A stretch of DNA of 64,000 nucleotides, taken from the NCBI RefSeq assembly GCF_011045215.1, contig NZ_CP049201.1; one strand, given 5' to 3'. Position 1 is the stretch's first letter. Each line of letters begins with the position of its first letter. The position numbers and the translations under genes are program-made. Source of the stretch: Escherichia coli. GTDB taxonomy: Bacteria > Pseudomonadota > Gammaproteobacteria > Enterobacterales > Enterobacteriaceae. Of this stretch, positions 27,790 through 28,135 are shown piece by piece. Below the pieces are notes generated by a model. It saw only the letters and a program-made list of their open reading frames with translations. It was not told the origin of the DNA and made no database searches.

Positions 27790-28135
27790 ACTGCCAGATG
27801 CGGCGCAAACGTCTTGTCCGGCCTACGGATGGCGCGAGAATTTGTAGGCCTGATAAGACGCGTTAGCGTCGCATCAGGCATCTGCGCACGACTGCCGGAT
27901 GCGGCGTAAACGCCTTATCCGGCCTACGGATGGCGCGGGAATTTGTAGGCCTGATAAGACGCGCAAGCGTCGCATCAGGCATCTGCGCACGACTGCCGGA
28001 TGCGGCGTGAACGCCTTGTCCGGCCTACGGGTGGCGTGAGAATTTGTAGGCCTGATAAGACGCGCAAGCGTCGCATCAGGCATCTGCACACGACTGCCGG
28101 ATGCGGCGTGAACGCCTTATCCGGCCTACATTTCG
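27790..28135. repeat. Tandem REP/BIME array, about 3.5 copies of a ~100-bp unit
   Basis: gatgcggcg(c/t)(a/g)aacg(c/t)ctt(g/a)tccggcctacgg...gtaggcctgataagacgcg...gcgtcgcatcaggcatctgc recurs near 27797, 27897, 27998 and 28097. Confidence 0.85.

Follow-up and report, generated by a model that had tools for sequence, protein, structure and literature searches.

The 64,000-nt stretch of Escherichia coli DNA that was analysed (the window) carries mhpE and mhpT in the same orientation, and the spacer between them holds seven REPs. The names of the two flanking ORFs were taken from the RefSeq annotation of near-identical loci. The coordinates of the REPs, their linkers, the non-REP flanks and the mhpT leader are collected in Table 1.

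Table 1. Features of the mhpE-mhpT junction. Positions refer to the window unless another genome is named.
Feature	Position	Strand	Remarks
mhpE stop codon TAA	27742..27744	+	ORF 26731..27744; RefSeq mhpE annotation
Left non-REP flank, 48 nt, Escherichia-specific	27745..27792	+	Without counterpart in the short Citrobacter/Klebsiella spacers
Y REP no. 1, degenerate	27793..27826	+	5 mismatches; hairpin -11.4 kcal/mol, z -0.3
Tail-to-tail linker, 17 nt, GGATGGCGCGAGAATTT	27827..27843	.	REP325 linker type, reverse complement
Z2 REP no. 1	27844..27879	-	0 mismatches to pattern; hairpin -21.9 kcal/mol
Head-to-head linker, 14 nt, ATCTGCGCACGACT	27880..27893	.	
Y REP no. 2	27894..27927	+	0 mismatches; hairpin -21.3 kcal/mol
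Tail-to-tail linker, 17 nt	27928..27944	.	
Z2 REP no. 2	27945..27980	-	Pattern match, hairpin fold
Head-to-head linker, 14 nt	27981..27994	.	
Y REP no. 3	27995..28028	+	1 mismatch
Tail-to-tail linker, 17 nt	28029..28045	.	
Z2 REP no. 3	28046..28081	-	Pattern match
Head-to-head linker, 14 nt, ATCTGCACACGACT	28082..28095	.	
Y REP no. 4, terminal	28096..28129	+	Pattern match; the REP kept in single-REP alleles
Three Rfam naRNA4 (RF02564) matches	27847..28126	-	27847-27924, 27948-28025, 28049-28126
Right Escherichia-specific flank	28130..28162	+	Contains GTAGGCAGTCA (28139-28149) and an in-frame TAA (28151-28153)
Ancestral mhpE-mhpT spacer (mhpT leader)	28163..28222	+	ATG 28163, hairpin 28168-28190, CACCTGC 28195-28201, SD GAGG 28211-28214
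mhpT, 403 aa, intact	28223..29434	+	RefSeq start
Array equivalent in MG1655	about 374,930-375,370		

A BIME-2 of seven REPs between mhpE and mhpT

Tandem Repeats Finder (TRF) reported a repeat at 27785-28129 with a period of 101, 3.4 copies, 94% matches, 0% indels and a score of 599. A separate repeat search of the array region found three 150-nt copies at 101/101 spacing with 91-92% identity, and the three full units agree pairwise at 92-95 of 101 positions. Over the whole window, the Y-REP pattern matched 4 times and the Z2-REP pattern 13 times, against 0.00 expected from 100 shuffles. Between mhpE and mhpT the REPs follow the order Y> Z2< Y> Z2< Y> Z2< Y>, so that each 101-bp unit consists of a 34-nt Y REP (+), a 17-nt tail-to-tail linker, a 36-nt Z2 REP (-) and a 14-nt head-to-head linker. 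REPs are imperfect palindromes of about 35 bp with the potential to fold into a stem-loop, and they are tagged at their foot by a conserved GTAG, which reads CTAC on the iREP strand (PMC3333891); all seven REPs of the array carry this foot, either at a ...GGCCTAC end or at a GTAGGCC... start. The Y and Z2 consensus patterns were cross-checked on REP325 of K-12, which fits them with 1-3 mismatches. Six of the mhp array REPs deviate from the consensus at 0-2 positions and the first Y at 5.

The whole array lies between the mhpE stop and the mhpT start and is thus extragenic. It also belongs to a repeat of high genomic copy number: an array-containing query found a median of at least 34 matching places per E. 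coli genome. BIME-2 elements are defined by y and z2 REPs in inverse (REP/iREP) arrangement, short linkers, and tandem copies whose number varies between strains (PMC3333891). Because the REP types, their alternation, the short linkers and the variable copy number all fit this definition, the mhpE-mhpT array is a BIME-2 that shows every sequence-level defining feature. The sequence-only reading had placed a tandem REP array here, at 27790-28135 and with about 3.5 copies of a unit of about 100 bp. The TRF result, the REP patterns and the RefSeq annotation of the flanks bear this out, and the reported extent, period and copy number fall within a few bases of those given by TRF. The literature on BIME-2 arrays goes back to the early 1990s. 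The array is an ordinary, already described kind of element, with a longer 9-REP allele in the K-12 reference genome; in itself it is of little significance and shows nothing unusual for a BIME-2. Under the Gilson/Bachellier/Hofnung classification, as PMC3333891 summarises it, the array differs in nothing substantive from the BIME-2 family.

We compared the array with REP325, the yjdM-yjdN BIME-2 of E. coli K-12 and the source of naRNA1-6 (RF02564), whose units were named Y and Z2 by Qian et al. 2015 (PMC4550694). Both arrays alternate Y and Z2 REPs, and both lie between two co-oriented genes. The units are 100 bp in REP325 and 101 bp in the mhp array and are 92% identical when one unit is compared with one unit; the 17-nt tail-to-tail linkers are the same bar 1-2 mismatches. 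The two arrays differ in REP number (12 in REP325 versus 7) and in the head-to-head linker, which in the same orientation is 13 nt in REP325, AACGGTGCCGACT, and 14 nt in the mhp array, AGTCGTGCGCAGAT. Relative to the direction of transcription of the flanking genes, the mhp array is inverted with respect to REP325. The effects of REP325 are known from direct expression data.

The relation to REP325 also appears in Rfam. The gathering score of the model is 59.5 bits. The three naRNA4 matches reach 88, 87.2 and 83.8 bits on the - strand; the + strand gives 62, 58.6 and 57.4 bits, and just one of these exceeds the gathering score. Each match corresponds to one Z2 REP, the head-to-head linker and the following Y REP. 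The Rfam model was built from REP325 units. The best-scoring strand of the mhp array is antisense to mhpE and mhpT.

A further array lies in the same window between prpE and codB (6931-7835). The sequence-only reading had described the mhp repeat as a different unit with the same architecture, and the comparison agrees: both arrays are alternating Y/Z2 BIME-2s that match Rfam naRNA4, and their units are 78% identical. The prpE-codB array has a 94-bp period, 9.6 copies and an 11-nt tail-to-tail linker, AGGCCTGAACC, versus 101 bp and 17 nt in the mhp array. It carries other REP variants (GTCGGAT in Y, ATCATGCC in Z2) and has the opposite orientation on the + strand, where it gives eight Rfam naRNA4 matches. 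This array is about 905 bp long versus 329 bp for the whole prpE-codB gap in K-12 MG1655, and it is therefore copy-number polymorphic as well. Isolated REPs occur elsewhere in the window, namely a perfect Y at 10560-10593 (+) and a Z2-like sequence at 2198-2233 (+).

BIME-1 (RIP/RIB) elements are likewise built of extragenic REP palindromes in inverse orientation. They are single-copy, contain z1 and have a long L linker with an IHF site (PMC3333891), whereas the mhp array is multicopy, contains z2 and has 14- and 17-nt linkers. The IHF consensus WATCAANNNNTTR has no match on either strand of 27745-28222. We rejected a BIME-1/IHF element on the lack of both the IHF consensus and a long L linker.

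An 8-bp inverted repeat, TGACTGCC (27748-27755) and GGCAGTCA (28142-28149), encloses the entire Escherichia-specific insert, and the pairing of its copies is the outermost stem of the predicted RNA fold, in the minimum free energy (MFE) structure and in the centroid. The left copy resembles the linker and head of a Y REP, and GTAGGCAGTCA, which holds the right copy, looks as if an inverted Y REP had collapsed and its tail and head had fused. Judged by these resemblances, the two copies may be remnants of older REPs.

Copy-number variation and origin of the array

Of the 5,426 complete E. coli genomes, 4,829 matched a flanks-only query with both flanks. We scored the spacer in 58 flank-bearing genomes sampled systematically along the score ranking, in which laboratory K-12 derivatives are over-represented and proportions are accordingly rough. 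The sequence-only reading had named comparison with other strains as a check on the array, and this comparison returned alleles of 1, 3, 5, 7, 9 or 11 REPs. The commonest has a single Y REP in an insert of 55 bp (31/58 genomes). Longer inserts measure 154 bp (3 REPs, 6/58), 257 bp (5 REPs, 4/58), 358 bp (7 REPs, the window type, 1/58), 457 bp (9 REPs, the K-12 type, 15/58) and 560 bp (11 REPs, 1/58). The flanks of these alleles are identical, and the arrays differ in whole Y-Z2 units alone. Two flank haplotypes, TAAtat... and TAAtga..., each occur with short and with long arrays, and we therefore conclude that units were gained and lost repeatedly. In the 11-REP allele the internal units are near-identical, indicating a recent amplification.

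Outside Escherichia, the order mhpE-mhpT is kept at 32 loci from other genera (Citrobacter, Klebsiella, Raoultella, Enterobacter, Kluyvera, Pluralibacter, Pseudocitrobacter and others, as distant as Azomonas), with a spacer of 62-125 bp. None of these 32 spacers contains a REP. Because other genera keep the gene order with a short, REP-free spacer, the array is, on this comparative evidence, an Escherichia-lineage insertion into an ancestrally short spacer that had no REPs. It parts mhpT from the mhp operon only in Escherichia. One-REP strains make up about half of the rough sample of 58 and the other genera have no REP; no given array length can therefore be needed for mhpT function.

The same site carries other REP arrangements within the genus. 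E. whittamii has 4 REPs there (L014:2195-2500). E. coli SCPM-O-B-8794 (L015:1818-2500), whose MhpT is 95% identical, carries a different BIME-2 variant with a period of 91 bp, whose 12 REPs follow the pattern (Z2< 13 nt Y> 8 nt) x6. Comparison of these sequences points to the mhpE-mhpT site as a hot spot of BIME turnover, a single insertion site that would have been remodelled repeatedly.

Two database records deserve a comment. The best full-length match to 27400-28500 is OkiPb01695 (99.3%), where mhpT is annotated as a frameshifted pseudogene (L002:2324-3534); the gene is intact in the window. SFGO01000113.1, labelled 'MAG: Clostridiales bacterium', encodes an MhpT that is 100% identical in the locus search and 99% identical by tblastn, next to a single-REP E. 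coli spacer. Misbinning of an E. coli contig is almost certainly the explanation.

The start and leader of mhpT

All RefSeq records examined start mhpT at the ATG at 28223, which is preceded by GAGG at a distance of 8 nt. An upstream in-frame ATG at 28163 gives rise to a 423-aa 'extended' mhpT ORF; this ATG is already past the array, 33 nt downstream of the end of the last REP at 28129. In K-12, O157 and most strains examined this codon reads ATT; the ATG is lineage-specific and is common to the window and PapM-32-1. The mhpT frame is closed upstream by the in-frame TAA at 28151-28153. The real mhpT start is thus 28223. The sequence-only reading had the extended ORF running into the array and warned that start-codon annotation is easy to get wrong here. 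The first statement is incorrect: an extended start reaching the array is excluded by the TAA at 28151 and by the poor conservation of the ATG at 28163, which itself lies past the array. Annotation trouble does occur, but of another kind and within the array itself. In some K-12-type records (L053:745-914, L054:745-914), PGAP annotates a 'hypothetical protein' pseudogene, frameshifted and incomplete, inside the array. This is a spurious call produced by the repeats, which can mislead gene callers. We likewise rejected the ORFs within the array (27899-28039 and 28000-28368) as coding sequences: they consist of REP units in frames unrelated to mhpT and match the PGAP pseudogene call.

The mhpT leader contains a hairpin of its own, GCGGCTG-GCAAYGTAT-CAGCCGC (28168-28190), which is conserved across genera, loop sequence included. 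The ancestral spacer consists mostly of this hairpin in Citrobacter, Klebsiella, Raoultella, Kluyvera (which has two copies), Pluralibacter and others. In an alignment of 19 sequences, 97.7% of the cells were paired and 2 pairs showed compensatory changes (6 cells), with G-U pairs in the + sense only. The covariation score was reached by no shuffle, and all slid registers scored far lower. The hairpin has no match in Rfam. Its stem is eroded in E. coli, with a G-U pair in K-12 and an additional mismatch in the window. We considered a sigma-54 promoter for the conserved TGGCA...GC motif of the leader and rejected it: several genera lose the GG or the spacing and keep the hairpin, and the peaks of the RpoN gSELEX paper lie only at mhpR/mhpA and mhpC/mhpD.

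The loop of this hairpin is also the site of a reported deletion end. The lacX74 deletion of DH10B is reported to end at MG1655 nt 375,417 with the microhomology TGGC(G/A)ATGT (PMC11148124), and MG1655 375,409-375,417 corresponds to 28173-28181 in the window, which is the loop. Strains with this deletion therefore lack the whole array, which accounts for two partial hits.

Predicted effects on the mhp transcript and rival readings

Folded as RNA, the spacer has a minimum free energy of -242 kcal/mol versus -180.7 +/- 6.4 for shuffled sequences (z = -9.6). Six of the seven REPs fold singly at -21 to -22 kcal/mol, with z scores of -3.8 to -5.5, and a Y REP together with the neighbouring Z2 is predicted to be able to form a hairpin of -51.5 kcal/mol. 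The array thus presents a hairpin-forming element on the transcribed strand, downstream of mhpE and between tandem genes, which is the structural setting of a REP-type attenuator or stabiliser. On the + strand the array is slightly richer in G than in C (C/G 0.88) and is therefore not a typical rut site. A patch richer in C than in G lies just 3' of it (GC skew -0.18 to -0.22, 28150-28300); in the literature, rut sites have been reported downstream of protective hairpins. A simple scan detected no sigma-70-like promoter in 27300-28700.

What such an element can do is best known from REP325. Its deletion raises expression of the downstream yjdN about 8-10-fold and lowers that of the upstream yjdM, and the attenuation is partly bicyclomycin-sensitive and partly Rho-dependent; REP325 thus acts as an attenuator and also stabilises the yjdM mRNA (bioRxiv 10.64898/2026.03.23.713779). 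In the same study, tandem gene pairs containing REPs had, genome-wide, a higher ratio of upstream to downstream expression; REP effects were highly variable and context-dependent, and mRNA half-lives were not longer on average. Attenuation of transcription by BIMEs is also attributed to Espeli et al. 2001 in a paper that cites it. The literature searched yielded no transcript, 3'-end or gyrase data for the mhpE-mhpT junction and nothing on an orientation dependence of attenuation, and neither gene figures in the supplementary lists of the gyrase Topo-seq study (PMC6379681) or of a 3'-end mapping study.

In our best reading, drawn from REP325, the array would shield the 3' end of the mhpE mRNA and throttle read-through into mhpT, the latter roughly in step with array length. 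The usual media are not known to induce the mhp genes, and so the regulatory step is taken wholly from analogy. We think it likely that the hairpins of this BIME-2 protect the mhpE 3' end and attenuate mhpT read-through, although the inverted orientation relative to REP325, the single-REP strains, the REP-free genera and the variability of REP effects speak against it. The mhpABCDFE transcript, induced through MhpR and 3HPP, would enter the spacer and form a row of stable RNA hairpins. These would block 3'->5' exonucleases, so that the mhpE message would have a defined 3' end guarded against decay, and the longer structured, untranslated stretch would attenuate read-through into mhpT, partly via Rho and roughly by the number of units. 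At the DNA level, gyrase probably binds and cleaves at the Y REPs. Units may be gained and lost by recombination or slippage among near-identical copies, or through TnpA_REP (RAYT), which cleaves and recombines BIMEs in vitro (PMC3333891). The role of insulator or terminator ahead of mhpT that the sequence-only reading had suggested is plausible by analogy with REP325; the array probably dampens read-through, and its particular copy number is probably not under strong selection.

A translation-coupled effect of the REPs on mhpE was considered and excluded on distance. REPs that stall translation (Liang, Rudd and Deutscher 2015) also lie downstream of a stop codon and, as they are described where PMC12306157 cites them, need to be fewer than 16 nt from it; the first REP after mhpE is 48 nt away and degenerate.

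The array might instead be a purely selfish or neutral BIME-2 with no meaningful effect on mhpE or mhpT expression, a reading we regard as possible but somewhat unlikely. After seeding in the Escherichia lineage, its copy number would have drifted by slippage, unequal recombination or TnpA_REP. The range of 1 to 11 REPs within the same flanks, with the single REP commonest, agrees with such drift, as do the unlike BIME-2 (period 91, 12 REPs) and the 4-REP array at the same site in other Escherichia lineages, the REP-free spacer in every other genus examined, and the almost identical internal units of the recently amplified 11-REP allele. However, the closely related REP325 has large measured effects on both of its neighbours, and it is unlikely that a transcribed spacer with seven stable hairpins would leave transcription untouched. 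Neutrality, moreover, is a matter of selection, not of mechanism, and a real regulatory side-effect that is not selected would agree with it. A main role on the DNA, in which the array would end the mhp operon with a topological barrier or a strong gyrase site that acts independently of transcription, seems to us doubtful. By analogy, the four Y REPs, three of them at 0-1 mismatch to the consensus, might be expected to attract gyrase: BIME-2 elements are enriched in gyrase cleavage sites, mainly in their y REPs, and a block of transcription strengthens the signal (PMC6379681). Yet only a subset of BIME-2 arrays is cleaved, the supplement text of that study does not name the mhp locus, and the single-REP alleles and REP-free relatives indicate that such a site is dispensable.

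Two further readings fare much worse. The three Rfam matches exceed the gathering score and could suggest that the array makes naRNA4-like nucleoid-associated small RNAs of about 77 nt, which would condense the chromosome together with HU as in the model that originates with Qian et al. 2015 (PMC4550694). This is highly improbable: the Rfam model picks up any Z2-linker-Y unit of a BIME-2 and matches the prpE array 8 times, and the strong matches at the mhp locus are antisense to mhpE and mhpT with no promoter-like site nearby. In addition, deletion or overexpression of REP325/naRNA4 leaves nucleoid volume unchanged, and REP-REP contacts were neither observed nor HU-dependent (bioRxiv 10.64898/2026.03.23.713779). 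A canonical intrinsic (Rho-independent) terminator set for mhpABCDFE is hardly credible at all. GC-rich hairpins do stand directly 3' of the last gene of the operon; however, no hairpin of the array is followed by a T-run, and a sequence scan of 27745-28222 found no intrinsic terminator.

The length of the array (1-11 REPs within fixed flanks) could act as a strain-specific rheostat on how much MhpR-induced mhpABCDFE transcription reaches the transporter gene mhpT, a proposal that we hold at low confidence. Were it true, uptake would be uncoupled from catabolism in Escherichia; in other enterobacteria no more than 62-125 nt and the conserved hairpin stand between the two genes. Gain and loss of units would then be a fast, reversible and non-coding way of tuning 3HPP uptake. 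If shown, the rheostat would supply a convenient natural allelic series (1, 3, 5, 7, 9 and 11 REPs) on which to test the recently proposed terminator/stabiliser model of REP function. The array is also usable as a length-polymorphic marker.

The sole intrinsic-terminator-like site in 27300-28700 sits within mhpT, at 28257-28287 (scan hit 28257-28277) and about 35 nt past the start; it consists of GCCTGATGCTGACCATCGGGC followed by TTTGTTTTTT. One such site does not exceed the chance expectation of 1.3, and it is therefore probably meaningless.
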